From Escherichia coli (GTDB lineage Bacteria; Pseudomonadota; Gammaproteobacteria; Enterobacterales; Enterobacteriaceae), in NCBI RefSeq assembly GCF_013315695.1, contig NZ_CP054353.1: a stretch of 64,000 nucleotides of DNA; one strand, given 5' to 3'. Position 1 is the stretch's first letter. Every line of letters starts with the position of its first letter. The notes under the pieces were generated by a model that was not told where the DNA came from, ran no database searches, and was given only the letters and a program-made list of their open reading frames with translations. The position numbers were made by a program, and so were the translations under genes. This document shows, in pieces, positions 12,577 to 50,495 of this stretch.

Positions 12577-13047
12577 ATGCTAAGTAATGATATTCTGCGC
12601 AGCGTGCGCTACATTTTGAAAGCCAATAATAATGACCTGGTGCGTATTCTGGCGCTGGGTAATGTCGAAGCCACCGCGGAACAGATCGCCGTCTGGCTAC
12701 GTAAAGAAGACGAAGAGGGTTTTCAGCGTTGTCCGGACATTGTTTTGTCTTCATTCCTCAATGGCCTGATTTATGAAAAACGCGGCAAGGATGAGTCTGC
12801 TCCGGCACTGGAGCCGGAACGTCGCATTAATAACAACATCGTGCTGAAAAAAATACGCATCGCGTTTTCGCTTAAAACCGATGACATTCTGGCAATCCTC
12901 ACCGAACAGCAGTTCCGCGTTTCGATGCCGGAAATTACGGCGATGATGCGTGCACCGGATCATAAAAACTTCCGCGAATGCGGCGATCAATTTTTACGTT
13001 ATTTTCTGCGTGGACTGGCAGCGCGCCAGCATGTGAAGAAAAGCTAA
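12577..13047 (+). CDS. yehS: YehS (DUF1456 family)
   Basis: ORF 12520..13047 with likely start at MLSNDILRS; position after btsR. Confidence 0.8.
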   Translation: MLSNDILRSVRYILKANNNDLVRILALGNVEATAEQIAVWLRKEDEEGFQRCPDIVLSSFLNGLIYEKRGKDESAPALEPERRINNNIVLKKIRIAFSLKTDDILAILTEQQFRVSMPEITAMMRAPDHKNFRECGDQFLRYFLRGLAARQHVKKS

Positions 13048-13054
13048 GACGGGT

Positions 13055-13084
13055 ATGGCGGCCATGCGAAACATGGCCGCCGAC
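13055..13084. terminator. Bidirectional hairpin between convergent yehS and yehR
   Basis: ggcggccatg-cgaaa-catggccgcc perfect stem. Confidence 0.55.
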
Positions 13085-13087
13085 AGA

Positions 13088-13549
13088 TTATTTCACTTCT
13101 TTAAAACCAGCGGCTTTCATCACCAGTTCCATTTGCGCCATAGTGATACCTTTTTTGGCATCTTCAGCAGAAACGTTGATTCCTGAAATACCCTGCAGGG
13201 CTTTAAAATCCACTTTTTCCATATCAATAGTCACGTTTTCCTGCGCGTAGGTATCGGTATAGGTTAATTTTTCTTCAACACCCGCGATGTTTTTGTATTT
13301 GGCGCTTAACGGCTCAAGTGTCCTGGCGGCATCTTCTTTGGTGGTTGCACCAATGGAGGCAAATTGAATTTTGGTTTCAGAAGATTGCTTAAGCACCTTG
13401 TCACCTTTGTAGACATAGGTAATGGCAATTTCAGTGCCGTTCAGATTGGCGCTGAATTTCTTTGATTCTTCTTTGTCACCGCAGCCAGCAAGAGAGAAAA
13501 CCAGAACAGATGCAACAACAAGGGAAAACAGCTTATTGAAAGCCTTCAT
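13088..13549 (-). CDS. yehR: Lipoprotein YehR
   Basis: Signal peptide with lipobox (LAGCG); start at MKAFNKLF. Confidence 0.8.
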   Translation of the reverse strand: MKAFNKLFSLVVASVLVFSLAGCGDKEESKKFSANLNGTEIAITYVYKGDKVLKQSSETKIQFASIGATTKEDAARTLEPLSAKYKNIAGVEEKLTYTDTYAQENVTIDMEKVDFKALQGISGINVSAEDAKKGITMAQMELVMKAAGFKEVK

Positions 13550-13673
13550 GTAAAACTCCATTTTATTTAATCAAGGAACTGGTGACTCTCACCAGGGGCT
13601 ATATAGGATATGCCTAATACTATGGCGTGAGCAGTCCGGAACAGGAGTAGAACTCTTAATAAAAAGCACTATT

Positions 13674-15674
13674 TCATCCTTGTTGCTGAAGCATGGGGAA
13701 TAATTGTTCGCAAAGCAAAACACCGTTATTCATTGCTTCTACCCGTGCCTCGCTTTCTGTATTACGAAATTGTCCCAACACATGTGCCAGCCGATAAAAA
13801 CCCACCGCGGTGAGGTCATTCGCCAGCAACTCTGCCTGACCAATAGCACTCTGTTCCTGATAGCGCCAGCCGTTATGGAGCAGTTGAATAAGTAACGCCT
13901 GGCAGCGCATCAGCAACTGATGAGCGGTAGACGGCACAGGCAGAACGCTGGCAGAAGGTAGCGGTGCCACAGGCGCAGTTTCTGCGTCCAGCGCCCAGGC
14001 GCGGGTTTTTGTCATCATCACCCGTGGTTCCAGTGTCAATTGCCCCTCTACAAAACTGACAAAGCCAGAAACCAGGCTCACGGGGTTGTCTGTTTGTTGC
14101 AAAAGCGCCGCCATGCGTTCAACGGCAAAAGGAGAACAGGCAGATGCCGGAAGGGATAACGTCAGCACATTATCTTCCCCTTCGCCACTGATTACCTGCG
14201 CATCCAGTGTCTGGCGGCTGCTATCCCAACCGAGCGAAATACACTCCGCTACCGGCAGAATAAATAAGTTATCGACCTGGTTGAGTGGTCGTATGCAGGC
14301 GGGGGGACGCTGGCGTAAATATTCCCGCAAAGCCACAATGCCCGGCTGGCGCAACGGCGCGCTCAACATTTGCCAGGCGTCTGGCGACAGTGGAACAACA
14401 CTACTCAAGCGGTTACGGGTCGCTAACAGCAGCTCGCCATCGGCACTGCGTTTTGCTGCTTGTGAAACAATTTGCCCACCAGCCAGTGCGCCAGCCTGAA
14501 AACTAAATAGCCGACGTTTTGTCGCGGGAGCGTTTTCTTGTTCGCTTCTCGGCCAACTACGCGAAAGGTGCAAAATACTGCCGGTGTCGGGATCGGTGAA
14601 CCAGATGCGTAAACCATACTGCTCAATATCCTGCCAGCAACGCATACCTAAAGACACCAGCCGCAGATGATCAAGCTTTGCTTCTCCGGCAATGCCAGAG
14701 CCAACGACCGTGCGCCACGGCACAGGAGGAACTTCACCAACACTGTCGCGCCGCGCCATCTCTTGTGCGCAATTTAATCGACTGTTTAATGCCGCAAGCT
14801 GACGTAAGCATTCTCCGGCATGGTAGTGGCTGGCGCGGGCGTGGAAGGCATCAACGCTGGCGCGCAATTGCCGTAGCGATTCACTCACCCATCGCCAGTT
14901 GCAGCGTTCCGCCGCTTGCTGCGCGCGGCTGAAAGCGGCCTCGTAATGAATAAGCGGCTGGCTGATGCCGCTCAGCCATAATGCCTGGCTTAGTTGCTGA
15001 ACATATTGACGACACGCGTTGCCCTCTTCGCTGGCAAACGGATCGTCAGATGATGTGACGTGTTCGCTGCGCATCTGCCAGATTAAATGGTTAAATTCTG
15101 CTTGCTGCGCTTTGGCCTGGACAAAGGCCTGTACTGCCAGCACAACATGTTCGCAAAGTGTTCCTTCAATACAATCACAGCGTGCGAAACGAATGCTGCT
15201 GCGGGAATAAAAACGTACATCGCTCATCGGTAAGCGGGCAGAGGGAATTTCGCCCGGCGTACAGAACAACTCAATGGTGATGCCTTTAGCGACCAGCGCC
15301 TGCGCGCGTTTGCGGGTGGCATCGGGAAGGGTAGCCAGTTCTTCTAGCCAGATTGCCGGATCCCACTCTTCTTCTTTTTCCGTAGGCTGGGTGGTGGCGC
15401 AAAGTCGCTGATAACTTAAAACCAGCATCACGCGATGGCGGCACATGCCGCTGGCCCCGCAGCTGCATTGAGCCTCTTTCAGTGCCTGACCGTTCGCCAG
15501 CTGGGTACGGACACCGTCACTGAAGGTGGCGATTAAAGCGCCGTTCTTATGGCTGATTTCCGGGACGTTGCCATTTTCCAGTTCCTTAAGACTGCGTTTA
15601 ACAAAACCGGCATTGCTTAACGCCGTCAGGGCCTGCGGCGTCAGTTCTAATAATTCCGGACGTAGTGAATTCAT
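13674..15674 (-). CDS. yehQ: YehQ, SWIM zinc-finger domain protein
   Basis: 666-aa ORF; Cys/His SWIM-like motif near the N-terminus; gene order. Confidence 0.75.
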   Translation of the reverse strand: MNSLRPELLELTPQALTALSNAGFVKRSLKELENGNVPEISHKNGALIATFSDGVRTQLANGQALKEAQCSCGASGMCRHRVMLVLSYQRLCATTQPTEKEEEWDPAIWLEELATLPDATRKRAQALVAKGITIELFCTPGEIPSARLPMSDVRFYSRSSIRFARCDCIEGTLCEHVVLAVQAFVQAKAQQAEFNHLIWQMRSEHVTSSDDPFASEEGNACRQYVQQLSQALWLSGISQPLIHYEAAFSRAQQAAERCNWRWVSESLRQLRASVDAFHARASHYHAGECLRQLAALNSRLNCAQEMARRDSVGEVPPVPWRTVVGSGIAGEAKLDHLRLVSLGMRCWQDIEQYGLRIWFTDPDTGSILHLSRSWPRSEQENAPATKRRLFSFQAGALAGGQIVSQAAKRSADGELLLATRNRLSSVVPLSPDAWQMLSAPLRQPGIVALREYLRQRPPACIRPLNQVDNLFILPVAECISLGWDSSRQTLDAQVISGEGEDNVLTLSLPASACSPFAVERMAALLQQTDNPVSLVSGFVSFVEGQLTLEPRVMMTKTRAWALDAETAPVAPLPSASVLPVPSTAHQLLMRCQALLIQLLHNGWRYQEQSAIGQAELLANDLTAVGFYRLAHVLGQFRNTESEARVEAMNNGVLLCEQLFPMLQQQG

Positions 15675-16737
15675 GACTGAAGATTCTCCGCAAGCCAGGC
15701 CGCCAGCTCGCCCGGTGTCATGGCGGCTATTTGTGCGCCGACATTAACTAGCGCCTGGGCCGTATCGTGGTCATAGCAAGGTGTTGCGGTGCTATCGAGC
15801 GCCGCCAGTCCCAGCACTTTGATGCCGCTCTGGACACACTTTTTCACCTGATGCGTCAGTAATGATGATGAACCCCCTTCGTAAAAATCGCTCACGAGGA
15901 TAATGACGCTTTTCGCTGGTTGTTCAATAAGTTGCCGACCATATTCCATGGCACTGGCGATATTGGTTCCGCCGCCTAATTGCACTTTCATTAATAACTC
16001 TACCGGATCGGCAACGTCTGCCGTGAGATCAACCACGCTGGTGTCAAACGCCACCAGATGGGTACGAATACCGGGTAACTGCCATAAACAGGCCGCCATC
16101 ACCGCTGAGTGGATCACCGAGTCCACCATTGATCCGCTTTGATCAACCAGTAAGACCAGTTGCCATTGTTCGCTTTGGCGTTTAATGCGGCTGTTAAAGC
16201 GGGGGGATTCGATATACAACTTGCCGTGTTGCGGGTGCCAGTGTTGCAGGTTGGCGCGCAGAGTACTTTTGAAATCAAAGTTTCGCGCCAGTGGAATAAA
16301 TGAGCGGCGACGGCGATCGCGGACACCAGAAAAAGCCTGACGAACTTCCTTTGCCAGTCGCGCCATAATTTCTTCCACAACCTGGCGTACTTTTCCGAAG
16401 GCTGCATACGTTCCAGCACGTCGAGATTTGTCACCACATCTTCAATGCCGTAGCGCAGTACGGCATCGCTTTCCAGCCGTTCAATCACCTGTTGCGGAAA
16501 CAGCGTGTGAATACTGTTGATCCACTCAGGGGTGGTGAGATTTGAGCCACCTAATCCACCGGAGCGTTCACCACGCTGGAGCCGTTCAGGATCGCGCCCG
16601 TACAGCCACTCCAGCGCGTGGTCTATCTGCCGGGCGTTGTCATCCAGCCCACAAAGCGTCGTTTCTGCCGCTTCGCCAAGAATTAATCGCCAGCGTTGTA
16701 GCTCACGGGTGGTCAGAAGATCGTTCAGTTCAGACAT
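15671..16737 (-). pseudogene. yehP: yehP (von Willebrand factor A domain), apparently frameshifted
   Basis: Two overlapping minus-strand ORFs in different frames (16114..16737 N-terminal part; 15671..16378 VWA part with DQSGSM motif); 1067-nt span is not a multiple of 3. Confidence 0.6.
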
Positions 16738-19009
16738 GGAAAACTCCCCAGTGTTGCAGCGATGTCAGTGCCTGCTGTTCGAGTTGTTGATGATGTGCAA
16801 TGGCTTGCGGTGGACAATGCAACGGCATTTGCAGCGCTGAAATGGGAAGCTGTGCGAGCTGGTAATGCTCAAGCACCTGATGCGCCAGCGTCCCGCGTTC
16901 TCGTGGTGGTAGCCAGGCCATCGCCGCGCGTAAATTGGGCAGGGCGTTAATAAAATCGTCGTCACTCAGTTGATTTAAATGACTACTGAAACCGGCGATA
17001 AATGCCGGCTGACAGGCCAGTTGATGACGGGCTAATGCCAGCAAACCGTGCAGCGCCTCGCCGGATTGTGCCGGGGATAACTGCGCCAGCATCGTCAGCG
17101 CCGCTTCGGCACTGGCGTTGGGATGTTCCAGACGCATTAGTGCGCCAAGAGCCGCGCCGCGATCCAGCGCCGGGGCATGAATCGCCTGACTGCGGCGCTC
17201 CAGTAAGGCTACCGCCGCAGAAAGCGAAACGCCGGGTAAATTAACGCCGCTATGTAGATCGCGCAGGATATGGCAAAGCGCTTGCCAGCTATGCAGGTGA
17301 GCGTGAAACTCCTTTTCATCCGGTCTGCCGTTGGATTCACACAGCCAGAGTGTGCGATCGATAGCTGCGCATAACGTCGTCTGTAATATCTGCGCGCCTT
17401 GCATACCGCTAATTTCATCCAGCCGCCATAAGGCGTATAGCACTTCCAGCGCCTGGCCCATTTCGGCAAACTGATTTTCCTGGGCGATTAATAATGTAAG
17501 TTGCTCCAGTAATTGTTGACTGAAGGACGCCAGACCCGCTAACGCCGCCTGGCTAAGACATGTGGTGATACTGCCGATTCCACCCGCGTCCAGCATATCG
17601 GCTTCTAATTTATGGCGTGCGGCTTCCTGGAGTGTGGCACCAAAGCAGGCGGCCTCAATTAATGCCGCATGTTGGCTAAGCGGGCGGGTTAATTTCCAGC
17701 GTTCTTCACCGTTGCCTGCAAGTGTCAGTGTACTTCCCTGCTGGCGCACAACCCCTGGGATCTCCAGTATTACCAGCCGATGTAACACCTGACTTTGCGC
17801 CAGTCCATCGGGGGTAAAGCGATTTAAGGTAAGCTCCGCCGGAAAAGAGATTCCGGTACGTTCCAGTTCGCAGGTGACATCTTTTGGCAGAGGTGGCTGT
17901 GGCGTCGAGGGGGCAAGTTTACCGAATCCGTCACCCGCTAATGTGTCTATCAACGTTAGCAGAATCGGATCGGTATCGGGATGAATAACGCCGCGATAGC
18001 TCCACGGCAACGGCGCGTTCAGGGCTTCTTTGATCAGCGAGCCGGCTATAGCATCCAGCCAGTCAGTGCGTAACGGTAGTGTATGACCGCGCAACTGTGC
18101 CAGTGCCATCGCATGCAGATGAGCGGCAGCCATATCCGCTGTTGAAGCAGGCAAGTGGTGCTGGCGCAAACGGGTAAGAACCGTTTTCAGTAGTTGTTCA
18201 CCTGCCTGCTGCAAGCCCCACCGCCAGCACCAGTTTTGCCAGACCGGGGCAGGCATTCCTGAAAGGTATCCTGCCAGCACATCAAGGCGCTTTTCACTGT
18301 ATGGCGTGAGATAGCAACCTGTAACGGCATCTGCCAGCGACGGCAATTCTGGCTTGTTAATTTCTTGCGGGCATTCGCGCCACATTTTTGCCAGTGCCGG
18401 AGCGTGCCAGCCACCGCAGACAACTAACACGTCGCCATTATTTTGCTGCATCGCCCATCCAATCCAGCGGGCCATAAAGGCTTCGCGCTGACGATTGAGA
18501 GCATCTCCGGGGGAGTCGCCCCGCAGTTGGGCAAAATAGTGCGCCAGTGCAGAGGGTAATGCAGTTTGCTGGCTTTCATCTTCGAACAAGTGATCCCACA
18601 GGGTGTCGCTGTTATCCATGCGGGTGGCACGCAGCAGCAAGGCCTGGCTTTCCTCTTGCATATCAGGCGAATCGTCCTCTTCTTCACTTTGTGCCCAGCA
18701 AGGCAAATCGATGAAGTAAGTTTGTGCCTGAATACGACGTGCGGCTTGTAGCGCCTGCCACTCCGGCGAAAATTCAGCAAATGGCGTCCAGGCACCACGC
18801 CCGGGGGCTGCACCGTCCTGATACTGGCAATAACTGTAAATAGCTACCGGAAGCTGGTGGGCTAACAACAGTTCGTCTACCCGGTCATTAAAATCAGCCG
18901 GGCCTTCAATCAACACGTATCGTGGCCGCTGGCTTTCGATTAACGATTTCACCAGCCGGGCGCAGGCCGGACTATGATGCCGGATGCCGACAATTAACGG
19001 CTCGCTCAT
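16730..19009 (-). CDS. yehM: YehM, uncharacterized large protein
   Basis: ORF 16730..19150; likely start at MSEPLIVGIRHH giving 759 aa. Confidence 0.8.
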   Translation of the reverse strand: MSEPLIVGIRHHSPACARLVKSLIESQRPRYVLIEGPADFNDRVDELLLAHQLPVAIYSYCQYQDGAAPGRGAWTPFAEFSPEWQALQAARRIQAQTYFIDLPCWAQSEEEDDSPDMQEESQALLLRATRMDNSDTLWDHLFEDESQQTALPSALAHYFAQLRGDSPGDALNRQREAFMARWIGWAMQQNNGDVLVVCGGWHAPALAKMWRECPQEINKPELPSLADAVTGCYLTPYSEKRLDVLAGYLSGMPAPVWQNWCWRWGLQQAGEQLLKTVLTRLRQHHLPASTADMAAAHLHAMALAQLRGHTLPLRTDWLDAIAGSLIKEALNAPLPWSYRGVIHPDTDPILLTLIDTLAGDGFGKLAPSTPQPPLPKDVTCELERTGISFPAELTLNRFTPDGLAQSQVLHRLVILEIPGVVRQQGSTLTLAGNGEERWKLTRPLSQHAALIEAACFGATLQEAARHKLEADMLDAGGIGSITTCLSQAALAGLASFSQQLLEQLTLLIAQENQFAEMGQALEVLYALWRLDEISGMQGAQILQTTLCAAIDRTLWLCESNGRPDEKEFHAHLHSWQALCHILRDLHSGVNLPGVSLSAAVALLERRSQAIHAPALDRGAALGALMRLEHPNASAEAALTMLAQLSPAQSGEALHGLLALARHQLACQPAFIAGFSSHLNQLSDDDFINALPNLRAAMAWLPPRERGTLAHQVLEHYQLAQLPISALQMPLHCPPQAIAHHQQLEQQALTSLQHWGVFHV

Positions 19010-19019
19010 GCATCTTTCC

Positions 19020-20108
19020 TCACGGCAGGCGGTGGCGAGCTTGATAATAAGCCTGCCAGTGAGCTTCTTTATGTGTAGCGACACGTTGTTCGAAGTAACG
19101 GCGCAGACGTGCGCGATCTTCTTCGTTATCTTTGACGATGGTTCCGGCAATACAGTCCACCAGGTCGGCTGGCTCCCCCGCGCGATTCGCTAAAAACCAG
19201 GCGCGGACACCCACAGCGTGGGCTACGTTCACGGCTTCAGCGGTGGACATAATCGCTGTCAGTGTATCCATTGACGTTTTCTTTTCGCCGTTGGCACGCA
19301 GATCGCGGAAGGTGCGTACCAGTAACTCCAGTACCGCGTCAGGAACTTTATGCGGAATGCCACTATGGGCCAATAAACGCGCCGAAGCACTGGCGACCAG
19401 TTCCAGTTCCTGGGCGAAATCCATAATCGGAAAGACCGTTTCAAAATCGAATCGACGCTTTAGCGCAGCGCTCATTTCATTGACGCCGCGATCGCGGGTA
19501 TTGGCAGTGGCAATAATATTAAAGCCTTCTCGCGCATAGAGCTGACTGGCTTCACCAGTGAGTTCCGGCACCGTCATTACCCTGTCAGAAAGCATACCTA
19601 ACAGACAGTCTTGTACTTCCAGCGGTGTACGCGTTATCTCTTCAAAACGGACGATTTTGCCGTCGCGCATTCCCTGGTAAAGCGGGGCAGGGACCAGTGC
19701 TTCCGTTGACGGACCATGGTTGATAAGCAGGGCGTAGTTCCAGCCGTACTTGATTTGATCTTCGGTGGTAGATGCGCCGCCCTGGATGGTTAACCCGGCA
19801 TCGCCGCTAATAGCGGTTGCCAGTAATTCAGACAGGAGAGATTTTGCGGTGCCAGGTTCCCCCACCAACATCAAACCGCGCCCGGTGGCAAGAGTGACTA
19901 ACATGCGTTCGACAGCGGAGGGACTAATCACCACTTTACGGCTAATATTTTGCGCGCTATCGCCAAGGATAAAAGCACGGGCCGCAGGCAAACTTAACTG
20001 CCAACCGGGCGGGCAAGGTGCGTGATCATTTTGTTTTAATTTTGCCAGTTCATCGGCGTATAACACAGCGGCAGGCGGACGCTGCAGATGATTATTCTGC
20101 GGTGACAT
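19020..20108 (-). CDS. yehL: YehL, MoxR-type AAA+ ATPase
   Basis: Walker A (GEPGTAKS); likely start at MSPQNNHL giving 362 aa. Confidence 0.85.
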   Translation of the reverse strand: MSPQNNHLQRPPAAVLYADELAKLKQNDHAPCPPGWQLSLPAARAFILGDSAQNISRKVVISPSAVERMLVTLATGRGLMLVGEPGTAKSLLSELLATAISGDAGLTIQGGASTTEDQIKYGWNYALLINHGPSTEALVPAPLYQGMRDGKIVRFEEITRTPLEVQDCLLGMLSDRVMTVPELTGEASQLYAREGFNIIATANTRDRGVNEMSAALKRRFDFETVFPIMDFAQELELVASASARLLAHSGIPHKVPDAVLELLVRTFRDLRANGEKKTSMDTLTAIMSTAEAVNVAHAVGVRAWFLANRAGEPADLVDCIAGTIVKDNEEDRARLRRYFEQRVATHKEAHWQAYYQARHRLP

Positions 20109-20224
20109 ATATTCATCCCTGAAATGTATTAATGAAATAAACGATATTTTACGCGCAATAAATGTTTGGCGCATTAGTTGTTTGAGCGGAAAATATCTGG
20201 AAAGCAGATCACAGTAAATAAAAA

Positions 20225-20250
20225 AACCTGCTGGTGAGGCAGGTTCTTTT
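20225..20250. terminator. Bidirectional hairpin upstream of yehL
   Basis: aacctgc-tggtgag-gcaggtt with T-runs on both sides. Confidence 0.5.
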
Positions 20251-20548
20251 ATTTACTACTTTCAGGCCTAACACCACGGCCTGTGCAACATCGTGTTCCA
20301 ACGAACGAATTATAACCATCGGTGGACCCCGTTGCAATTAAGATAATGAGATTTATAATCCTGACTGTTGGGAGGTTGCGCCGGATCGAACCCATTTCAA
20401 GTCCTGGCTACCGGACGGGTGGTGCCGCAGGTAGTGCCCTGATCCGGAGTGCAACATCGTGGTCCAACATACGTAAACCAGTATCGACAGGCAGGTGATG
20501 CTGCCAACTTACTGATTTAGTGTATGATGGTGTTTTTGAGGTGCTCCA

Positions 20549-20824
20549 GTGGCTTCTGTTTCTATCAGCTGTCCCTCCTGTTCAGCTACTGACGGGGTGG
20601 TGCGTAACGGCAAAAGCACCGCCGGACATCAGCGCTATCTCTGCTCTCACTGCCGTAAAACATGGCAACTGCAGTTCACTTACACCGCTTCTCAACCCGG
20701 TACGCACCAGAAAATCATTGATATGGCCATGAATGGCGTTGGATGCCGGGCAACAGCCCGCATTATGGGCGTTGGCCTCAACACGATTTTACGTCACTTA
20801 AAAAACTCAGGCCGCAGTCGGTAA
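20549..20824 (+). CDS. insA: IS1 InsA
   Basis: 91-aa ORF inside IS1 copy A. Confidence 0.9.
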
Positions 20825-21246
20825 CCTCGCGCATACAGCCGGGCAGTGACGTCATCGTCTGCGCGGAAATGGACGAACAGTGGGGCTATGTCGGGGCTAA
20901 ATCGCGCCAGCGCTGGCTGTTTTACGCGTATGACAGGCTCCGGAAGACGGTTGTTGCGCACGTATTCGGTGAACGCACTATGGCGACGCTGGGGCGTCTT
21001 ATGAGCCTGCTGTCACCCTTTGACGTGGTGATATGGATGACGGATGGCTGGCCGCTGTATGAATCCCGCCTGAAGGGAAAGCTGCACGTAATCAGCAAGC
21101 GATATACGCAGCGAATTGAGCGGCATAACCTGAATCTGAGGCAGCACCTGGCACGGCTGGGACGGAAGTCGCTGTCGTTCTCAAAATCGGTGGAGCTGCA
21201 TGACAAAGTCATCGGGCATTATCTGAACATAAAACACTATCAATAA
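20743..21246 (+). CDS. insB: IS1 InsB (expressed as InsAB' fusion by frameshifting)
   Basis: 167-aa ORF overlapping insA inside IS1 copy A. Confidence 0.9.
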
Positions 21247-21256
21247 GTTGGAGTCA

Positions 21257-21967
21257 TTACCCAGTAGCATATTCCAGACCGCCTTCCTGAATAATCTGAT
21301 CCATAACATCCTCACGCTCTTTATATCTCGTGCAGTGCAGTTCAAGTGCCGCGAGTACAGCCATTACCGGTGATGGTAATTTTGTCGTTTTCGGGCTGTT
21401 AATCAGATCGATCGCCTGAGCGATGAAGTTTTGCCACTCTAAAGTACAGGCGCTGAAGTCAAATGTAGCTGTTTTGTTATCCCGTTGCGACACGCCACAG
21501 GCTAAGCGACGTAACTGGGTTAATTTATCTACAGGTGTAACAGGATCTCCGGGAAAGCGGCGATGGCTTAAGGTGGTGGGTACGACTTCAAGCGGAAAAA
21601 CGACAGCAATATCTTTTGCCAGCCACGGTAAAATAACGTCTGTATTTTTGTCAGCCACGTAGATTTCTGGTGTAACTGAGGGCTGTTCCTGAATGATGGT
21701 AGAAAAGTCAGATAATTCGAGAGTTTTCGTTACCGTTCGAGTATGTTTCGATGTAGCATTCTCCGCTTGTTCCACATACCCCTTTTTCGTTTTCTCCGCA
21801 ATCAGCTTGAGTTCCGCTTTTTCCGCCGCCGCAGCATCTGCAAAGCTTTTTACCTGACTTTGCCCGTTGGTGCCGACTTTGCCCCAACTGATATTCAGTT
21901 CGTTTCCCTGCTGCTCCACCGCCCAGAATTTATGTGATTTTTCGTCCTGATAAATATAGGTTTTCAT
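21257..21967 (-). pseudogene. yehI: yehI-like WGR-domain protein, N-terminal 235 codons only, truncated by IS1 copy A
   Basis: ORF begins MKTYIYQDEKSHKFWAV (WGR) and its stop codon lies inside the IS1 terminus. Confidence 0.65.
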
Positions 21968-23658
21968 TGCAAAGTCCTTTTAATCAAAAAGTGATTCGAT
22001 GTCGTTAATGAGTTCGCTGGCGGTGATGTCGTCGAGCATGGAAAAAGTAAGTAAAGGTTGTTTACCGTAGCGATCATCTGGCGAGGTGATTTTTACGCTT
22101 TCAACAGGTAACAGGTCGCCATAACCTGTTTCGCCGTAAATTAATGAAAAATGTTCTGTTTCAAGTTCGAGATCGCCATAAGGGGTAGATTTGCGCATCG
22201 CATAGACGCTGCCGCTTTCTTCCAGGCGTTGCCAGCCTCGGCGCACTAGCCCGACAATGCGCCCTGCCTGGCAAAGACGTCCGCTCCAGCGTGTCAGTTC
22301 ATGAGTATTCTGTTCATTATCAGCAAGACGATAACTACCACGATCGAGCTGTTGGAAGGGGGGAAGCAGTTCGTAATCAGCGTAAATTTGCCTGAATGCA
22401 GCGGCAGATTCAGGGGGGATTTCCAGCATATGCGGAATACCGATGTTTCCTGCTGGTAGCGTGAATAGCTCATCCTGCATATCGCTGTAAGTGCTGTCTT
22501 CTGCGACCCGGAAGCAGGCAATCAGCGTGTTTTCCTCAGTATATACCCCCCATAACAGTCGTCGGGTTAAGTGACGTACCAGTGGGTGCTCCACCATGAA
22601 CAGGCGGAACTGCTCTGTTGTCCAGCGTCTGCGCTGGCACATAGCCTGTTCCAGACGATCAATCTGCTGGCTGGCTATGGCGCGTACATCTTTTTTCAAC
22701 TGTTTGAAGAGGTTAACGGCGTCAGTTGCCAGTGTTTTATCATCGCTCTGGTTTGGTTTGGGTAAGTCTTTCAGGACTTTGCCGTTTGCGTCACGAACCA
22801 TGGGTTTTAAGGTTTCGTCAAAACCAACGGTGAATTGACGTGGGCCGAAATCAAGTGTCAGCGAGCCGTTGATATCAAGCCCCAAATCTGGAGCCAGACG
22901 GTCTTCCAGTTCAGCCATTGTCAGTCCGCGATTTTTGGCGACCATATTGATTTTGTCGCTCGCATGTTCCTGCAATGCGGCGAATTTAATTTTTTGCGCA
23001 ATGCCATTAAGCAACATTAGCGCAATGTCGCTACCGATACTGGCTAACACATCCAGCCCGTAAACCGCGCGTTTATGCTGGGATTCACCCGGCCAGGCGC
23101 GGATAAGCGGGGTTAATTTACGCGCGGTGTCGTCATCGCCTAAAATTCCCAGCGAGGTAAATGCCCAGTTTTCTTTTGCGGGAGCGCCAGCTTCTGTCCA
23201 GGCGGTATACAGATCCCAGCCAAAGTCAGCCAGGGAATCGCGGGTGAAGGTGTCTTTGATGATCTCCAGCCCAGCGTAGGCGGTAATGTCGCGTGAAAAG
23301 CTCAACATAGTGCCGAGGTGGCGCATAGCGTCATCTGGCAGAGGCAGGTTGTTACTTTTAAGCCGTGGTCTGCGCCATAAGGTGAACTGATAAAAGCCGG
23401 GCAGTGGGGCGATTTTTGCGGGATGATCCTCAAGCGGATCGCTATCAAATAATGTTGCCAGCGCTGCTAAAATATCAGGTTGATTATATCCTTGGGCGAT
23501 TTCCTCAATCGTTTCTCGCTGGTTTAATTTCACTAGCAGGAGGAGTGCCTGGCGGGCATATTCCCGATTTTGGCACGGTTTGCCCAGCGCCAAAGGCAGT
23601 AGCCCGGCGGCGGCATGGCGCGGGTTATTTGCCAGCCAATTAACGGCATCCTTGTAAG

Positions 23659-25084
23659 TAATGCCAGTCAGTTAAGCAACTGACTGGCTCTTTTTCGGGG
23701 CTGTGGGGTATTTCCAGGGCCTCTCCTTTACCACTCTCGGGAAGGCCCTTTCCCTTCTTGTCGGTAATTTCACAAGTTGTCCCATACTTGCAAGATCGCG
23801 CATCAGCTCCGGTATACGTCCCGGTGAAGCGCCCTGCAATGTCATCAGCATTCTCATCACCATTCCGCATGATTCTGAGAAACTCAGTTGATTCGGCCAG
23901 TAACCTTTCAGATGTTCCGCCATTTTAATCATCTGATATCTCACCAGATTATAAGCCAGTAAGACACCCCACAGCTCTTGCTCCACAAGCTCCGGTTTTT
24001 TACTTCTCAGCGTCAGCCTGCTCAGTTGCATCGTCTGTTTTATCTCCCTGTATCCCAGTTCGATTTCCCAGCGATGACTGTACAGATCCGCCATTTCTCC
24101 TCCGGGGAAGCGCATGGCGTCCGTCATCGACGTCAGCAGATGGCAGACTTTTCCTTTGCGCGTCACGGTCAGCAGGCGGGCTGTCACTTCATTTCCCAGT
24201 CCCGGCCACTTTTTTCGTGCCTGCGGGCTGGTTTTCAGCTTCACCAGATGATCGCCTTTACCCAGTTTTCTGATCTCTTCATATTGCGCTCCCTTTCTGA
24301 GAGGTATCATCCAGTGGCGGTGTTCTCCCGCCAGGCTCCAGGCATTTAACAGTCCCAGTGAGTAATAACCTTTATCCATTAACGTCAGAGTGTTATCGCC
24401 GGTTTGTTCTATAAGTTGCTCAGCAAGCTCATTTTCGCTGTTCTTCATCGTGCCGAAGGCTGCAGCCGTCAGCAGATGGCTGGTCAGTTCCATCTGGCAG
24501 ACCATTTTGACCTGCGGGTAGAGCGCCGGGTTCCCGGCATGTGTCTGGCGGGGGAAGGCTGCATCGTTCTCTGGTGTATCCGGTGTGCGCCAGAACACAC
24601 CATCGATGGCCAGCAGGGTCAGGCCGCACCAGTGCGGATGCGGCGTGGCGTTATGCCAGAGCTGCGCTGTTTTCGTGAACACGCGGCGGACAGCCTCACT
24701 TCCCAGGCGCTGGCGGGCCTGAATAACGGCACTGGGGGCAACGAAGGGGCGATTGCCCGGCAGCATGATGTCCAGGCGATTCACAATCTGGTGAAGAGGT
24801 TCTTTACGCTCAAGCGCCATGCCAACAATACACCAGACCATCATTTCGAGGGGAAGACGGCGCTTGCGTAGCGTTACAGTACCTGATTCGGCAAGGCAAC
24901 GAGAGATGAGTTCGGGGTCGAGGTAATCCCCCAGAGAAGTCAGTGGGTTACGCAGAGAATCGTAACGGGATACCAGATCAAGAGCCTGTCCAATGTGCAT
25001 AAAAAAATCCGGAAACAAGTGAGCGTTTCCGGATTCTTACACAGCCACTGGATCGGTCAACTGATCCTTAACTGATCGGCATTA
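23659..25084 (-). mobile_element. IS4 (1426 bp) with 12-bp target-site duplication catccttgtaag
   Basis: Termini taatgccagtcagttaag … cttaactgatcggcatta; identical 12-mers at 23647-23658 and 25085-25096. Confidence 0.9.
23672..25000 (-). CDS. insG: IS4 transposase (DDE family)
   Basis: ORF 23672..25018; likely start at [10 protein letters not shown]. Confidence 0.85.
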
Positions 25085-27322
25085 CATCCTTGTAAGCCAT
25101 TTTTTTCTGTAACCGCTGCGCCATTGGTAAGGCTAGTTCACTGGCCCCAATAAAGAGGGTGAATATCCACAGTCGTTGATGATCTCGTTGCAAGCAGGTC
25201 ATAAACGAAGGAATGGCCGTACTGCCAAAAATCCCCAGAATCTCTTTCTCACCTGAATATTGCTCCTCAATGATTATTTGGTTGAGAAATGAAATCGCCT
25301 GTTGTCCCGGTAAGTAACAAAGTGCAGATAGATTCCAGCTCTTGTTGGCATTGTTGTGATATTTCGCAAACTCAGCTTTTAGTGTTGGAAAATCAAAGCG
25401 CAACAAGGCATCAACAGCGCTTTGCGGTATATATTTTTTTTCATGCAAGTCATCCTCGCAATGCCGCCATTCATTAAAACCTAATTGCCAAAGGATTTGT
25501 TGTTCTGGTGTAAAAGGAATGAAAGATGTCTCCCAACTTTCTTTTTCAATTAGTGGCAGATCGGTAAATAAGGTTTGCTGTGATGCCTGATATTGCGCGA
25601 TTTCACTGAATCTGGATATGTCAGTATGACTGATTAACTCTGTAATTCCAGGTGTGATATCCGTCACGGCTGGAACAGGAAGCACAGGTAAATCAAATAC
25701 GGGTATTACATTTTTCTTCTTATTTATTACCCACGGTGGAGCGACAAATAGCTGCGGTAGCATATCCGCAGTAGCGTATTCATATTCTTCAGCGACTGAC
25801 TGAGGACGACATTCAGATAAGATGCCTGCCGCCTTAGCATTAACCCAGGGAATGACGTCGCATACTAACTCTGGCGTGATGGTAATCAATTTGACAAGCG
25901 CTTTATGCCACTCTTTATCTTCATGTATTGCCAGCAAAGTTGCATAAGCGGCAATAGCCGCAGCGGGATGTTTTTGACAGGCTTTGCTTAAGTATTCCAG
26001 GTGCTTTTTCTTGCCAATTACACCGAGGATCAGAATTTGAATCGCATCCGGGTGATTCGTTTTCCATAACCATTTGACAAGATCTTCAGTCTCGCTGATG
26101 CGCTCGAAGAGATAAGTGGGATTGTCAGAATGCTCTTCCACAAACTCAGTAAGTATCCGGCTTACACCGCTCACCCCATTATTTGCCAGCAACATTGCCA
26201 GATAAGCGCGAAAATCACGATATAACGGTGGGAAGTCGTATTTTTCTGCTGCAGTCAGAGCGGCATCATCGGTTACTACCAGTCTTAACCAGGTCATCGC
26301 CGGAACGTTTTGGTCTGCGTAACGTAGAGCCATAGCATTGGCAATATCCGGGCGTTCAGGGAGCAGTAACGCCGCAAAAGGTTGCCGTGCTGGGGATAGC
26401 GTCGGAATAGCAGTAAGCACTTTATTCACACAGCGTTGCCACTCATCTTCTGAAGCGAGTGAAAGATGATGACATAGACGTTGATGCCAACTCGGTAGCG
26501 ATTCTGCTTTGTGACCAGGTGGAATGATGGTGGTGACTGCGCCTTTTACTGGTTTATATTTGAGTTGAAGAGCAAAAAGGGCGATTTCAACGGCACTTTC
26601 CAGACCACAGCGAATGACTAAGTCATCGACCAGTTCATCTGCAGAGTAAGAGTTCCAAAAACTCCAGAGCAATGCCGCATCAGATTGCGCACTCCCTGTT
26701 TGTTGATTGTCCAGAATTCGACTTTGTAACTCGGCAAACGCTTGCTGCCAGTTTTCAGGATAAGAGCGGTAATTATTGTCGGGGTCATATGCCCTGGTGT
26801 TATTCGCAATGCGCTGCCATATTTGACCATCTTTGTGCAGATAATTGATCTCTCTGGGGCGAGAGCGATGTGGAAAAGCAAATCGATTAATATCGTCAGT
26901 GACAGGAATGACTGCATCATCAGCCAGCCATGGGTGTTTATTTTGACTCACAGGGGGAGTTTTAACTTCAGGAGTGGCTTTGGTGACTGGAGGGAGATAT
27001 ACGTTTGCCGAATTGCCTTCCACATACCCCTTTTTCGTTTTCTCCGCAATCAGCTTCAGCTCCGCTTTTTCCGCCGCCGCAGCATCCGCAAAACTTTTTA
27101 CCTGGTTTTGCCCTTTGGTGCCAACTTTTCCCCAACAGATATGCAACTCGTTTCCCTGCTGCTCCACCGCCCAGAATTTATGTGATTTTTCGTCCTGATA
27201 GATAAAGTGTTTCATTCTGCATTCCTGTAATTTTATCCAGTTGAATGCTGATGCTACCAGTATTTATGCGGGTTAGAGAGAGACAAAATCGCAAGAAAAC
27301 AACTTTAGGAATTTATAAAGAA

Positions 27323-27346
27323 AAGGCGCTGTCGATGCAGCGCCTT
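27323..27346. terminator. Bidirectional hairpin between metG end and molR start
   Basis: aaggcgctg-tcgatg-cagcgcctt with T-run on the minus strand. Confidence 0.55.
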
Positions 27347-27355
27347 GAAGGGGGA

Positions 27356-29389
27356 TTATTTCACCTGATGACCCGGTTTAGCACCAGCATCCGGGCTTAG
27401 CAGGAAGATATCTTTCCCGCCAGGACCGGCAGCCATCACCATGCCTTCGGAGATACCGAAGCGCATTTTACGTGGTGCCAGGTTAGCCACCATAATGGTG
27501 TGACGACCAATCAGTGCCTGCGGATCCGGGTAAGCAGAACGAATGCCGGAGAAGACATTGCGTTTTTCACCGCCGAGATCCAGCGTCAGGCGCAGCAGTT
27601 TGTCAGAACCTTCAACAAACTCTGCGTTTTCGATCAGCGCCACGCGCAGGTCAACTTTGGCGAAGTCGTCAAAGGTGATGGTTTCCTGAATCGGATCATC
27701 TGCCAGTGGGCCAGTAATTGGCGCGGCAGCTGCTTTCACTTCTTCTTTAGACGCTTCCACCAGTGCTTCAACCTGCTTCATATCGATGCGGTTATACAGC
27801 GCTTTGAACGGATTCACTTTGTGGCCCAGCAGCGGTTGCTGGATACCATCCCAGGTCAGTTCTGTATTGAGGAATGCTTCTGCGCGCTCGGTCAGTTTCG
27901 GCAGTACCGGCTTCAGGTAAGTCATCAGCACGCGGAACAGGTTTATGCCCATTGAGCAAATTGCCTGCAGGTCGGCATCGCGGCCTTCCTGTTTTGCCAC
28001 CACCCACGGAGCCTGTTCATCGACATAGCGGTTAGCCAGATCAGCCAGCGCCATGATTTCGCGTACTGCTTTACCAAATTCGCGGCTTTCCCACGCTTCA
28101 CCAATCACTTCAGCGGCATCAGTGAAGGTTTTGTACAACTGCGGGTCAGCCAGTTCGCTTGCCAGCACGCCGTCAAAACGCTTGTTGATAAAGCCCGCAT
28201 TACGAGAGGCCAGGTTAACCACTTTGTTAACGATATCGGCATTCACGCGCTGAACGAAATCTTCCAGGTTGAGATCGATATCATCAATGCGCGAAGAGAG
28301 TTTCGCAGTGTAGTAGTAACGCAGGCTGTCGGCGTCAAAATGATTCAGCCAGGTGCTGGCCTTAATAAAGGTACCGCGAGACTTAGACATCTTCGCGCCG
28401 TTCACCGTCACATAGCCATGAACAAACAGGTTGGTCGGCTTGCGGAAGTTGCTGCCTTCCAGCATTGCTGGCCAGAACAGGCTGTGGAAGTAAACAATAT
28501 CTTTACCGATGAAGTGGTACAGCTCGGCGGTGGAGTCTTTCTTCCAGTATTCATCGAAGCTTACGCTGTCGCCGCGCTTGTCGCACAGATTCTTGAAAGA
28601 ACCCATATAGCCAATCGGCGCATCCAGCCAGACGTAGAAATATTTACCCGGCGCGTTCGGAATTTCAAAACCGAAGTACGGCGCGTCGCGGGAGATATCC
28701 CACTGTTGCAGGCCGGATTCAAACCACTCCTGCATTTTATTTGCCACCTGCTCCTGCAACGCACCGCTGCGGGTCCATGCCTGCAACATTTCGCTGAAAG
28801 AGGGCAGATCAAAGAAGAAGTGTTCAGAATCACGCATTACCGGCGTAGCGCCAGAAACCACCGATTTCGGTTCGATCAATTCAGTCGGGCTGTAGGTCGC
28901 GCCGCAGACTTCGCAGTTATCGCCGTATTGATCCGGGGATTTACATTTCGGGCAGGTGCCTTTCACAAAACGGTCCGGCAGGAACATGCCTTTTTCCGGA
29001 TCGTACAGCTGAGAAATAGTGCGGTTTTTAATAAAACCGTTTTCTTTCAGGCGGCTGTATATAAGCTCTGACAGCTGACGGTTCTCTTCGCTGTGCGTAG
29101 AGTGGTAATTGTCGTAGCTAATGTTAAAGCCTGCGAAATCAGTCTGATGCTCCTGACTCATTTCGCCAATCATCTGCTCCGGGGTGATACCGAGCTGCTG
29201 AGCTTTCAGCATGATCGGTGTACCGTGGGCATCGTCGGCGCAGATGAAGTTGACCTCGTGGCCGCGCATTCGCTGGTAACGGACCCAGACATCAGCCTGG
29301 ATGTGCTCCAGCATATGGCCGAGGTGGATTGAGCCGTTAGCGTACGGCAGTGCGCACGTCACCAGAATTTTCTTCGCGACTTGAGTCAT
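27356..29389 (-). CDS. metG: Methionyl-tRNA synthetase
   Basis: ORF 27356..29398; start [26 protein letters not shown] (HIGH motif), KMSKS present; 677 aa. Confidence 0.95.
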
Positions 29390-31148: not shown

Positions 31149-31203
31149 GGTGATGCTGCCAACTTACTGATTTAGTGTATGATGGTGTTTTTGAGGTGCT
31201 CCA

Positions 31204-31479
31204 GTGGCTTCTGTTTCTATCAGCTGTCCCTCCTGTTCAGCTACTGACGGGGTGGTGCGTAACGGCAAAAGCACCGCCGGACATCAGCGCTATCTCTGCT
31301 CTCACTGCCGTAAAACATGGCAACTGCAGTTCACTTACACCGCTTCTCAACCCGGTACGCACCAGAAAATCATTGATATGGCCATGAATGGCGTTGGATG
31401 CCGGGCAACAGCCCGCATTATGGGCGTTGGCCTCAACACGATTTTACGTCACTTAAAAAACTCAGGCCGCAGTCGGTAA
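31204..31479 (+). CDS. insA: IS1 InsA
   Basis: Identical to the other copies. Confidence 0.9.
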
Positions 31480-31901
31480 CCTCGCGCATACAGCCGGGCA
31501 GTGACGTCATCGTCTGCGCGGAAATGGACGAACAGTGGGGCTATGTCGGGGCTAAATCGCGCCAGCGCTGGCTGTTTTACGCGTATGACAGGCTCCGGAA
31601 GACGGTTGTTGCGCACGTATTCGGTGAACGCACTATGGCGACGCTGGGGCGTCTTATGAGCCTGCTGTCACCCTTTGACGTGGTGATATGGATGACGGAT
31701 GGCTGGCCGCTGTATGAATCCCGCCTGAAGGGAAAGCTGCACGTAATCAGCAAGCGATATACGCAGCGAATTGAGCGGCATAACCTGAATCTGAGGCAGC
31801 ACCTGGCACGGCTGGGACGGAAGTCGCTGTCGTTCTCAAAATCGGTGGAGCTGCATGACAAAGTCATCGGGCATTATCTGAACATAAAACACTATCAATA
31901 A
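31398..31901 (+). CDS. insB: IS1 InsB
   Basis: Identical to the other copies. Confidence 0.9.
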
Positions 31902-31967
31902 GTTGGAGTCATTACCTAAATAGGCTTGATGAAAGTTCTATTTCTATATTTTTCAATATACAAATTT

Positions 31968-32000: not shown

Positions 32001-32285
32001 TCATACTTCAGAACACATACTCAATGTGTAAACAGCCATCTCTCCATCGGGATTAGAAGGGCGTAATACAAATATCGGTATACTGCCATTGTCAATGTAT
32101 GTGGCTGCAACCCCTCCGTCAGGTGTAGCATACAAATCAAGTCCTTCACAAAACTCTTTTGCCGTAACCTTTTTAAGATGGTCAGCATATTTGATCATCT
32201 GGAGGTGCATTTCCATCGTTTGGCTATTTCGTGGTGCGCTGCTAATGGCTTGCTTAATGTTCTCGTAGATCTGGGTTTCTGTCAT
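32001..32285 (-). CDS. Hypothetical 94-aa protein of unknown function (orphan gene divergent from thiM)
   Basis: Clean ORF (MTETQIYENIKQ…) with its own terminator and an AT-rich upstream region carrying a perfect palindrome; I do not recognise the family. Confidence 0.5.
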   Translation of the reverse strand: MTETQIYENIKQAISSAPRNSQTMEMHLQMIKYADHLKKVTAKEFCEGLDLYATPDGGVAATYIDNGSIPIFVLRPSNPDGEMAVYTLSMCSEV

Positions 32286-32316
32286 TGTTTATCCCACCTA
32301 TCAAATTTAGAAAAAT

Positions 32317-32338
32317 AATATTAATTAGCTAATTAATA
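32317..32338. promoter_or_regulatory. 22-bp perfect palindrome atattaattagctaattaatat, candidate operator
   Basis: Perfect dyad symmetry read directly; lies about 32 bp upstream of the 94-aa ORF start. Confidence 0.4.
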
Positions 32339-32494
32339 TAATCAATGGTTTTCACCATCTGAATGATAGTCGCTAATTGTTTCTTTTTCATTCCTTCTAT
32401 GGGGTACAAAATGGGGTACACAGAGAAGAAGCAATTAATGGAGGCGAGCTTGCATCTGCAAGCCACTTCCCCTAAGCTGGCACAAAATATAGAG

Positions 32495-32631
32495 ATTCAA
32501 CCAAACGACTCGGGGTGCCCTTCTGCGTGAAGGCTGAGAAATACCCGTATCACCTGATCTGGATAATGCCAGCGTAGGGAAGTCACGGACCACCAGGTCA
32601 TTGCTTCTTCACGTTATGGCAGGAGCAAACT
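32495..32631 (+). promoter_or_regulatory. TPP (THI-box) riboswitch in the thiM leader
   Basis: Contains ggggtgcccttctgcgtgaaggctgagaaatacccgtatcacctgatctggataatgccagcgtagggaa, the classic thiM THI-box, directly upstream of the thiM start. Confidence 0.85.
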
Positions 32632-39112: not shown

Positions 39113-39170
39113 CTTTTAATTCCTTCATGACAGGTAATGTAAGGTACGCGATGACGGTAATGACTCCAAC

Positions 39171-39674
39171 TTATTGATAGTGTTTTATGTTCAGATAATG
39201 CCCGATGACTTTGTCATGCAGCTCCACCGATTTTGAGAACGACAGCGACTTCCGTCCCAGCCGTGCCAGGTGCTGCCTCAGATTCAGGTTATGCCGCTCA
39301 ATTCGCTGCGTATATCGCTTGCTGATTACGTGCAGCTTTCCCTTCAGGCGGGATTCATACAGCGGCCAGCCATCCGTCATCCATATCACCACGTCAAAGG
39401 GTGACAGCAGGCTCATAAGACGCCCCAGCGTCGCCATAGTGCGTTCACCGAATACGTGCGCAACAACCGTCTTCCGGAGCCTGTCATACGCGTAAAACAG
39501 CCAGCGCTGGCGCGATTTAGCCCCGACATAGCCCCACTGTTCGTCCATTTCCGCGCAGACGATGACGTCACTGCCCGGCTGTATGCGCGAGGTTACCGAC
39601 TGCGGCCTGAGTTTTTTAAGTGACGTAAAATCGTGTTGAGGCCAACGCCCATAATGCGGGCTGTTGCCCGGCAT
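39171..39674 (-). CDS. insB: IS1 InsB
   Basis: Identical to the other copies. Confidence 0.9.
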
Positions 39675-50411: not shown

Positions 50412-50495
50412 GAAACGGATGATAACCTTAATAAATGCAGCTGTATGTGATCGGTTTCTAAGAATTTTCCATCCGGGAAAAATAATCGAAATTAA

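Follow-up and report, generated by a model that had tools for sequence, protein, structure and literature searches.

A conserved DUF4132-yehLMPQ gene cluster related to MoxR-vWA systems, and its stepwise erosion in an insertion sequence-rich clone of Escherichia coli

The pairs of MoxR-class AAA+ ATPases and vWA proteins (viz. RavA-ViaA, CbbQ-CbbO, NorQ-NorD, and CoxD-CoxE) are among the closest described counterparts of the yeh gene cluster of Escherichia coli, which in the stretch of E. coli DNA analysed here (64,000 nucleotides of contig NZ_CP054353.1, hereafter the window) consists of WGR/DUF4132 genes related to molR and of the genes yehL, yehM, yehP, and yehQ. As in these pairs, an AAA_5/MoxR gene (yehL) and a VWA_CoxE/VWA_2 gene with a complete metal ion-dependent adhesion site (MIDAS; yehP) are found in one operon, and by analogy the expected logic of the yeh pair would be the ATP-driven remodelling of a vWA-held client. 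YehL was reportedly named as a MoxR subfamily by Snider and Houry in 2006. The yeh system differs from the characterised pairs in its DUF5682 (YehM), SWIM (YehQ), and WGR/DUF4132 partners, which are not found with them, and in the family-invariant P-loop (GEPGTAKS) and Walker B (RFEE) sequences of YehL, which depart from the canonical motifs GxxxxGK[ST] and hhhhDE. A coupling of an AAA_5 motor to a MIDAS domain is also seen in midasin/Rea1, which pulls factors off a large complex; however, midasin is one giant polypeptide of eukaryotes that works on pre-ribosomes, whereas the motor and the MIDAS domain of the yeh system are separate small proteins with other partners.

The MoxR-vWA ternary conflict systems (Kaur, Burroughs, Iyer and Aravind, 2020; PMC7159879) similarly combine a MoxR-vWA core with extra conserved components, and both they and the yeh system are abundant in actinomycetes and myxobacteria and have partners that vary in copy number and diverge fast. 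However, the yeh system contains none of the four third components of the ternary systems (viz. VMAP, inactive STAND, FtsH, and beta-propeller), and the variable C-terminal effector domains carried by the vWA proteins of those systems are absent from YehP, a protein of 378 amino acids (aa) with its vWA domain at the C-terminal end. YehL is not mentioned in the description of the ternary systems (PMC7159879), and a literature search under the yeh gene names, in which the matches were mostly author names, found no functional study of YehLMPQ. We regard the yeh system as an uncharacterised variant of the MoxR-vWA systems.

Conserved gene order argues that the DUF4132 genes together with yehL, yehM, yehP, and yehQ are one conserved five-component system. 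In all of the Pfam-labelled neighbourhoods of YehM relatives, the genes occur in the order DUF4132 (with or without WGR), AAA_5/MoxR, DUF5682, VWA_CoxE, and a YehQ-like protein of about 650-750 aa. This order is found in Klebsiella, where it is syntenic with metG, in different genomic contexts in Serratia and Burkholderia, and in three contigs from metagenomes or metagenome-assembled genomes at 31-38% identity. A scan of one genome per species identified at least 581 species with a YehM relative. Among the best 80 species loci of these, analysed with hidden Markov models built for this work, YehL, YehM, YehP, and YehQ occur together in 76, and 71 also contain at least one DUF4132 gene, whose copy number per locus is one in 41 loci, two in 16, three in 14, five in 2, and zero in 7. 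The gene order extends over the Pseudomonadota, Actinomycetota, Myxococcota, and Acidobacteriota (viz. Enterobacterales, Burkholderiales, Xanthomonadales, Myxococcota, many Actinomycetota, and one acidobacterium). The original prediction, which was made from the letters of the window alone, had grouped molR, yehI, yehK, yehL, yehM, yehP, and yehQ into one unit. The conservation of gene neighbourhood across 71-76 of the 80 loci and four phyla upholds this grouping for the DUF4132 genes and yehLMPQ but not for yehK, which we place outside the unit because it is absent from Klebsiella and frameshifted in many strains (viz. A36, AF14, UTI89, Rb-23, AVS0744, and strain 1437).

In further support of a single system, a fusion protein of DUF5682 and vWA occurs in one genome, GCA_022841245.1, on a contig (L011, 3227-23468) that carries two tandem copies of the system; the fusion belongs to the first copy, and in the second a HEAT-repeat protein takes the place of the DUF4132 gene.

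Of the explanations considered for the locus and its state in the window, we favour, at a probability of roughly 55%, that of a single SOS-linked hydrolase system gated by a MoxR/vWA pair, which is non-essential and often lost in E. coli and which is decaying by a ratchet in the clone to which the window belongs. The protein features that enter into this explanation are as follows. YehL, whose orthologs have precomputed Pfam AAA_5 assignments, has its best sequence matches among solved structures in the AAA modules of midasin (E = 7e-10) and in the MoxR structure 2r44. The MIDAS motif of YehP (DQSGS...GGGT...SDF) is complete and conserved in seven orthologs, and its orthologs carry Pfam VWA_CoxE/VWA_2. 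YehQ contains two SWIM CxCxnCxH motifs, at residues 70 and 166, with a weak match to Pfam SWIM. Two of the DUF4132 proteins, referred to here as P1 (encoded by the metG-proximal gene) and P2, have an N-terminal WGR domain, which matches that of structure 2ra8, and a C-terminal DUF4132. The sequence search of solved structures gave no matches for YehM, YehQ, and YehP, and the matches to NCBIfam were weak and below threshold (viz. GvpN, MadB, cobaltochelatase, and a WGR-only Leptospira protein).

For YehM, a Foldseek comparison of the whole model with the PDB returned only weak helical-repeat matches (importins, cohesin SA2; E > 0.02) because the C-terminal solenoid dominated the search, a problem that was solved by modelling the N-terminal domain alone. 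On the basis of this model, the N-terminal DUF5682 domain is predicted to have the TIKI/TraB/ChaN hydrolase fold, i.e., an alpha/beta domain with a parallel beta-sheet core, which is a new assignment. In comparison with the TIKI/TraB/PrgY/erythromycin-esterase/ChaN/RRSP superfamily, the sequence identity of YehM is only 8-14%, Pfam gives DUF5682 alone and not the superfamily, and the N-terminal domain is followed in the same chain by some 500 residues of helical repeat. The invariant residues of YehM comprise GxRHH (8-12) including H11/H12, E35, H51, E83, D101, E143, R175-E176, and GGxH (199-202) including H202.

The link to the SOS response comes from a predicted LexA box just upstream of the P1 start codon, the core of which is the same in K-12, A36, and UTI89, and from the listing of molR among genes with a known SOS box or belonging to the LexA regulon (PMC6590174). 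The DdrO radiation regulon of Deinococcus includes one WGR protein and one DUF4132 protein (PMC8533742). Under the explanation favoured here, YehL and YehP would constitute an ATP-driven remodelling pair, as in other MoxR-vWA pairs, that gates or assembles YehM; YehM, as judged by its predicted fold and invariant His/Glu residues, may be a hydrolase of the TIKI/TraB/erythromycin-esterase type. Recognition of a target or cue, either a nucleic acid or a protein, would fall to the WGR/DUF4132 paralogs and YehQ, and the first gene of the cluster would be expressed upon DNA damage via the LexA box.

Bases 13000-28000 of the window match two complete E. coli chromosomes, viz. AF3 (from blood, UK) and MSB1_4I (from a rectal swab, Australia), at 100% identity and AF14 and OZ546911 at 99.9%, and the window is confirmed to be E. 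coli chromosome. The allele on the left flank of the yehP lesion described below is common to IAI39, CE10, and ST648-type strains, and hence the clone is probably related to phylogroup F. Within the cluster, yehQ shows no stops or indels in comparison with strain A36, and yehM and yehL are likewise full-length, with 0 stops or indels against the intact reference. The yehP gene has lost a net 70 bp at about 16386-16391 (nt 347 of 1137) and is out of frame after residue 115, which bears out the frameshift that had been predicted; the lesion falls upstream of the vWA domain, and an open reading frame (ORF) with a GTG start (15671-16378), encoding the vWA half, remains in frame. The neighbouring genes metG, apbC, btsSR, yehR, and yehS are all intact, again as predicted. 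The positions of the features of the locus are given in Table 1.

Table 1. Features of the yeh locus in the window, with their positions, strands, and characteristics.
Feature	Position	Strand	Characteristics
yehQ	13674-15674	-	SWIM-type zinc-finger protein, 666 aa, intact; ORF and RefSeq annotation
yehP pseudogene	15671-16737	-	vWA (MIDAS) partner of the ATPase; frameshifted
yehM	16730-19009	-	DUF5682 protein, 759 aa, intact; predicted N-terminal TIKI/TraB/ChaN-like alpha/beta domain and C-terminal helical repeat
yehL	19020-20108	-	MoxR-class AAA+ ATPase (Pfam AAA_5), 362 aa, intact
OrzO-P antitoxin small RNA	20220-20295	-	Rfam RF02083, 98.9 bits; upstream of yehL, toxin gone
IS1 (768 bp)	20494-21261	+	marks the 7,287-bp adjacent deletion; junctions determined against AF14
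P2 5' remnant (706 bp, 235 codons)	21262-21967	-	WGR domain; ortholog of K-12 molR/yehF-yehH
P1 3' part	21980-23658	-	DUF4132; RefSeq annotation and paralog comparison
IS4 (1,426 bp)	23659-25084	-	simple insertion in the WGR/DUF4132 gene P1
P1 5' part	25085-27215	-	WGR domain and helical region; RefSeq annotation and paralog comparison
LexA-box-like site	27223-27242	-	AACTGGATAAAATTACAGGA (CTG-N10-CAG); just upstream of the P1 start codon

The remaining lesions involve the DUF4132 genes and two insertion sequences (IS), and their description requires that the paralogs be distinguished. Intact genomes such as A36 contain three deep WGR/DUF4132 paralogs, viz. P1, P2, and YehI, with protein identities of 44% (P1/P2), 37% (P2/YehI), and 31% (P1/YehI); YehI is without a WGR domain. 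K-12 has only two paralogs, and its molR pseudogene (yehF/yehH) consists of the body of P2 with the first approximately 200 nt of the P1 type. Three gene labels of the original prediction must consequently be revised: the gene split by IS4, which had been called molR, is P1, the K-12 molR ortholog being P2; the supposed truncated yehI is the 5' stump of P2, yehI itself being wholly absent; and yehK has not been reduced to a 3' remnant but has been lost entirely in the IS1-associated deletion. The P2 remnant is 100% identical to residues 1-235 of AF14 P2 and 76% identical to K-12 YehF.

The IS4 copy in P1 is a full-length element flanked by a target duplication of 12 bp (CATCCTTGTAAG, at 23647-23658 and 25085-25096), which lies within the 11-13-bp range, and no target DNA has been lost, all of which accords with simple transposition. 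In-silico excision of the element with one copy of the duplication yields an uninterrupted P1 ORF of 1,265 codons, showing that IS4 is the only lesion in this gene. The IS1 copy, by comparison, has differing flanks (GACAGGCAG and CAGTAGCAT) with no target duplication, its end abuts a deletion breakpoint, and it stands in place of 7,287 bp of the 99.9%-identical AF14 sequence (L005, 8996-16282), as is characteristic of an IS1-mediated adjacent deletion; the loss may instead have originated by recombination between two IS1 copies. The deletion took a zorO-like type I toxin gene, the whole of yehK, the whole of yehI, and the 3' 81% of P2. A zor-orz locus has been described in the yehI-yehL spacer (PMC2887945). 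The ZorO-like toxin ORF of 29 aa (MDTLTQKLTVLIAVLELLVALLQLIDLLK; AF14, L005 9042-9131) was part of the deleted segment and is no longer found in the window, and OrzO-P is thus left as an orphan type I antitoxin.

Searches for the exact lesion junctions in 5,426 complete E. coli genomes have established the relative ages of these events. The 50-mer across the yehP deletion matches exactly in 4 genomes, which we refer to as the clone. The IS4/P1 junction is present in 6 genomes, viz. the 4 clone genomes and 2 others, and the IS1/P2 junction is found in only 2, AF3 and MSB1_4I, both of which are among the four. The IS4 insertion and the yehP deletion are thus shared by 4/4 clone genomes and the IS1 deletion by 2/4, from which it follows that the IS1 deletion is younger and the other two lesions are older. 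The erosion of the module in this clone is therefore stepwise and comprises three separate mutational steps. A nested ancestry for all 6 genomes with the IS4 junction was considered and rejected: CFSAN061770 has the same junction (window 23634-23683; L106 18001-18050), but its P1 allele is only 91-93% identical to that of the window and its module is otherwise intact, so that IS4 in this strain either represents an independent insertion at the same preferred target or was transferred by recombination. In the proposed course of decay, the IS4 insertion and the yehP deletion would have come first, the loss of yehP removing an obligatory vWA partner, and the IS1-mediated removal of P2, yehI, yehK, and zorO would have followed in an IS1-rich genome that was shedding neighbouring accessory loci; the decay would then consist of successive losses, neutral or mildly beneficial, that ratchet onward from the first knock-out.

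Lesions in the cluster are not limited to this clone. At a coverage of at least 80%, the yehLMPQ block is present in 5,202 of the 5,426 complete genomes (96%), yehI with yehK in 5,220 (96%), P2 in 4,012 (a count lowered by allelic divergence), and P1 in 1,629 (30%), and the DNA of the module is thus nearly core in E. coli. The presence of the genes is not uniform, in that P1 is found in full in 30% of genomes as against 96% for yehI and for yehLMPQ; such independence had been named beforehand as evidence against a single unit. A search for co-loss with a single 11.3-kb yehI-yehQ query was confounded, and we draw no conclusion about co-loss from it; the yehK-yehL spacer measures 0.3-1.2 kb, and the BLAST match of this query was split in about 1,200 genomes. 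In a sample of 14 genomes outside the clone (11 from search results and the references A36, K-12, and O157:H7), 9 have module pseudogenes resulting from nonsense mutations or frameshifts at independent positions, and 5 have all of the genes intact. The 13 pseudogene calls at distinct positions in the module compare with 2 among approximately 180 flanking genes, an excess of 4.6-fold per kb (P = 0.017; gene-wise Fisher P = 2e-5). They are located in yehQ (K-12, stop at codon 615; Rb-23, stop at 270; S1, 7-bp deletion), yehP (AVS0744, 1-bp deletion), yehM (O157:H7, stop at 510; UTI89, 7-bp deletion; Rb-23, 1-bp deletion; AR_0150, stop at 224), yehL (AR_0150, 11-bp deletion), P2 (K-12 and ETEC6, stop at 275; 2014C-3051, stop at 306; O157:H7, heavily degraded), and P1 (O157:H7, stop at 243). 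Large clusters of truncated YehM proteins in public protein data agree with this survey. Disruptions of the locus have also been published: in ST131 a transposon lies in the "metG/DUF4132/yeh region" (PMC9334617), and in lineages 2/3 of Shigella sonnei yehM and yehL fall within a deletion (PMC12795559). The loss is not confined to the present lineage, and pseudogenes due to point mutation occur also in many lineages that are not rich in IS elements.

The intact alleles present a different picture. The ratio of nonsynonymous to synonymous substitution rates (dN/dS) is 0.04 for YehL, 0.06 for YehP, 0.10 for YehQ, 0.13 for YehM, 0.19 for YehI, 0.23 for P1, and 0.29 for P2, with 0.015 for metG, and dS is near the metG level for all of the module genes except P1 and P2. 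In E. coli the alleles of P2 (compared as L002 14981-18775 vs. L099, L100, and L102) fall into lineages that are deeply separated (77-96% nucleotide identity, with a dS of about 0.28), and those of P1 differ by 6-13%, divergences that are far above those of neighbouring core genes. The overall picture is one of a function long maintained by purifying selection, with frequent recent knock-outs on terminal branches.

The most serious of the other explanations, which we nevertheless consider unlikely, is that the lesions reflect background decay alone, i.e., that an expansion of IS1 and IS4 together with drift struck a non-essential segment of about 20 kb where IS1 is transposing locally, and that the lesions are uninformative about a unit or about relaxed selection. 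In Escherichia and Shigella genomes with an expanded IS content, non-essential loci are known to be broken by IS insertions, by adjacent deletions that IS elements mediate, and by small deletions, and the window conforms to this description. It contains four IS1 copies (20494, 31149, 39156, and 43800) and one IS4, where approximately 0.46 would be expected in about 65 kb of ancestral DNA from some 37 IS1/IS4 copies per genome (P = 1e-4), and the occurrence of four IS1 copies in about 54 kb suggests local IS1 hopping. The enrichment is equally strong outside and inside the module, and yehA-D, rcnRAB, and gatA have been lost as well. The module has suffered 3 events in about 20 kb in comparison with 2-3 in the about 45 kb of the remaining non-prophage window, an excess that is not significant (binomial P = 0.18-0.27). 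On the other side, the 70-bp deletion in yehP was not caused by an IS, the 9 independently broken genomes of the 14 sampled are unrelated and without IS expansion, unlike the usual erosion of IS-expanded genomes, and the conserved gene order indicates a unit independently of any lesion. The concerted loss of a dispensable system that was originally proposed is therefore retained in part: the system is dispensable and has been broken step by step, but its lesions are not in significant excess over those of the surroundings. We judge the decay to be a ratchet of the ordinary stepwise kind, taking place in an IS1-rich clone as one case of a species-wide pattern, and neither a coordinated event nor a concerted loss peculiar to this lineage.

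The other IS1 copies of the window are individually placed as follows. The copy at 31149-31916 directly follows yehE, where, as comparison with CFSAN061770 shows, IS1 has removed both the entire fimbrial operon yehD-yehA and the nickel/cobalt efflux locus rcnB-rcnA-rcnR; that at 39156-39925 is in the yegT-fbaB spacer, and that at 43800-44567 splits gatA (galactitol phosphotransferase system IIA).

An adaptive cause of the losses appears improbable to us. It would hold that in certain niches the system imposes a cost or does harm, through self-damage in the SOS response or through action against useful prophages, plasmids, or IS elements, and that its knock-outs are positively selected. The recurrence of knock-outs at different sites and genes across phylogroups while intact alleles are under strong purifying selection speaks for this view, as do the fast evolution of the sensor-like paralogs with their divergent P2 lineages, the variable presence of P1, the H-NS silencing of the yehL-yehM region (PMC3686432), the SOS link of the first gene (PMC6590174), and the situation of the locus beside a lambdoid prophage in a clone with many IS copies. 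However, none of the seven proteins matched a PADLOC-DB 2.0 defence model at E <= 0.01, the locus is found at a constant place in the chromosome and outside any defence island, 5 of the 14 genomes keep all of the genes intact, and niche-dependent relaxed selection predicts the same pattern. A related and speculative proposal, to which we give about as little credence, is that the cluster might be an undescribed conflict or stress system linked to DNA damage or foreign DNA, in which diversifying WGR/DUF4132 sensors and the SWIM protein bring in a MoxR/vWA motor to set free the activity of YehM as a TIKI-family protease or esterase, with its repeated loss reflecting a fitness cost (SOS self-damage, or interference with prophages, plasmids, and IS elements).

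A number of observations weigh against the explanation of a single, SOS-linked, and often lost hydrolase system. The lesions in the window are too few to show module-specific decay; the 14-genome sample is small, its statistics ignore kinship, and some of its 1-bp frameshifts could be assembly errors; and yehI, with 0 disruptions in this sample, fits poorly with a uniform relaxation of selection. Because an in-frame ORF for the vWA half of YehP survives, the loss of function in the clone may be incomplete. At the level of the proteins, the non-canonical Walker motifs make YehL a putative ATPase, the invariant His/Glu residues of YehM are a candidate 2His/2Glu catalytic constellation, and the links among the module proteins, like their activities, are predicted from sequences and models.

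It is much less probable that the WGR/DUF4132 genes and yehLMPQ are two independent units brought together by chance and hit by unrelated lesions. The two halves differ in their promoters and regulators, the molR promoter being activated by BglJ-RcsB and not repressed by H-NS (PMC3950696) and the repression of yehL and yehM being relieved when hns/stpA are mutated (PMC3686432); the halves are separated by yehK and by a type I toxin-antitoxin locus (PMC2887945); P1 is far rarer than yehLMPQ; and 7 of the 80 loci have no DUF4132 gene within 10 kb. Against this stand the DUF4132 genes of 71/80 species from four phyla, which abut the ATPase gene on the same strand, and those of Burkholderia, in which the DUF4132 gene has been relocated to the 3' end of the same cluster; moreover, several of the seven loci that lack a DUF4132 gene are at contig ends. 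Lastly, although frameshift flags in single assemblies can be errors, as illustrated by AF3, in which yegT is flagged for a stop and gatY for a frameshift while both have intact ORFs in the window, sequencing or assembly error is already refuted as the source of the disruptions discussed here, which are a 70-bp deletion, a 1.4-kb IS4 with its target duplication, and a 7.3-kb deletion whose junctions recur in 4 (yehP), 6 (IS4), and 2 (IS1) independent complete assemblies.

The decay itself is ordinary erosion of accessory genes in an IS-rich clone, and the value of the locus lies in the system, a five-component cluster that has been present in E. coli K-12 for decades without a function and is conserved in at least 581 species of several phyla. 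A concrete hypothesis can now be formulated for it, viz. that of a putative hydrolase of the TIKI superfamily, gated by a MoxR/vWA pair, provided with putative nucleic-acid sensors of the WGR type, and placed under SOS control. It is also unusual at the population level, in that purifying selection over the long term goes together with knock-outs that are recent and frequent. K-12, O157:H7, and UTI89 all carry broken copies; the standard laboratory strains are thus poor hosts in which to look for a phenotype, and intact alleles, such as those of A36, GPEC403-625, strain 64, and EC21Z-014, are needed. The predicted fold of DUF5682, the SOS link, and the list of intact strains make the system experimentally approachable.

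Outside of the cluster, several minor features of the window were recorded. The window and AF3 cease to be collinear after position 31916, and the additional absence of 5.1 kb that AF3 and MSB1_4I carry indicates that it derives from a further-deleted relative of those strains. The missing segment comprises a yehA remnant, rcnBAR, one copy of a thiamine pyrophosphate (TPP) riboswitch, an integrase gene, and most of an HNH gene. In AF3 the integrase/HNH islet is complete and the thiM TPP riboswitch is duplicated around it; in the window, a helix-turn-helix-like gene fragment and the tail of the islet (32139-32597) are located just upstream of the sole remaining thiM TPP riboswitch. Positions 1 to about 9900 contain tail genes of a lambdoid prophage (gpJ, Lom, tail fibre, and DinI-like), which ends beside btsS at the position occupied by mlrA (yehV) in non-lysogens, of which only a 66-bp remnant is annotated; O157:H7 has the same arrangement of the prophage/btsS junction, and the site is a known phage attachment site. 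The CyaR small RNA (50328-50413, minus strand; Rfam, 100.7 bits) is in its usual place beside trhP/yegQ and is ordinary.

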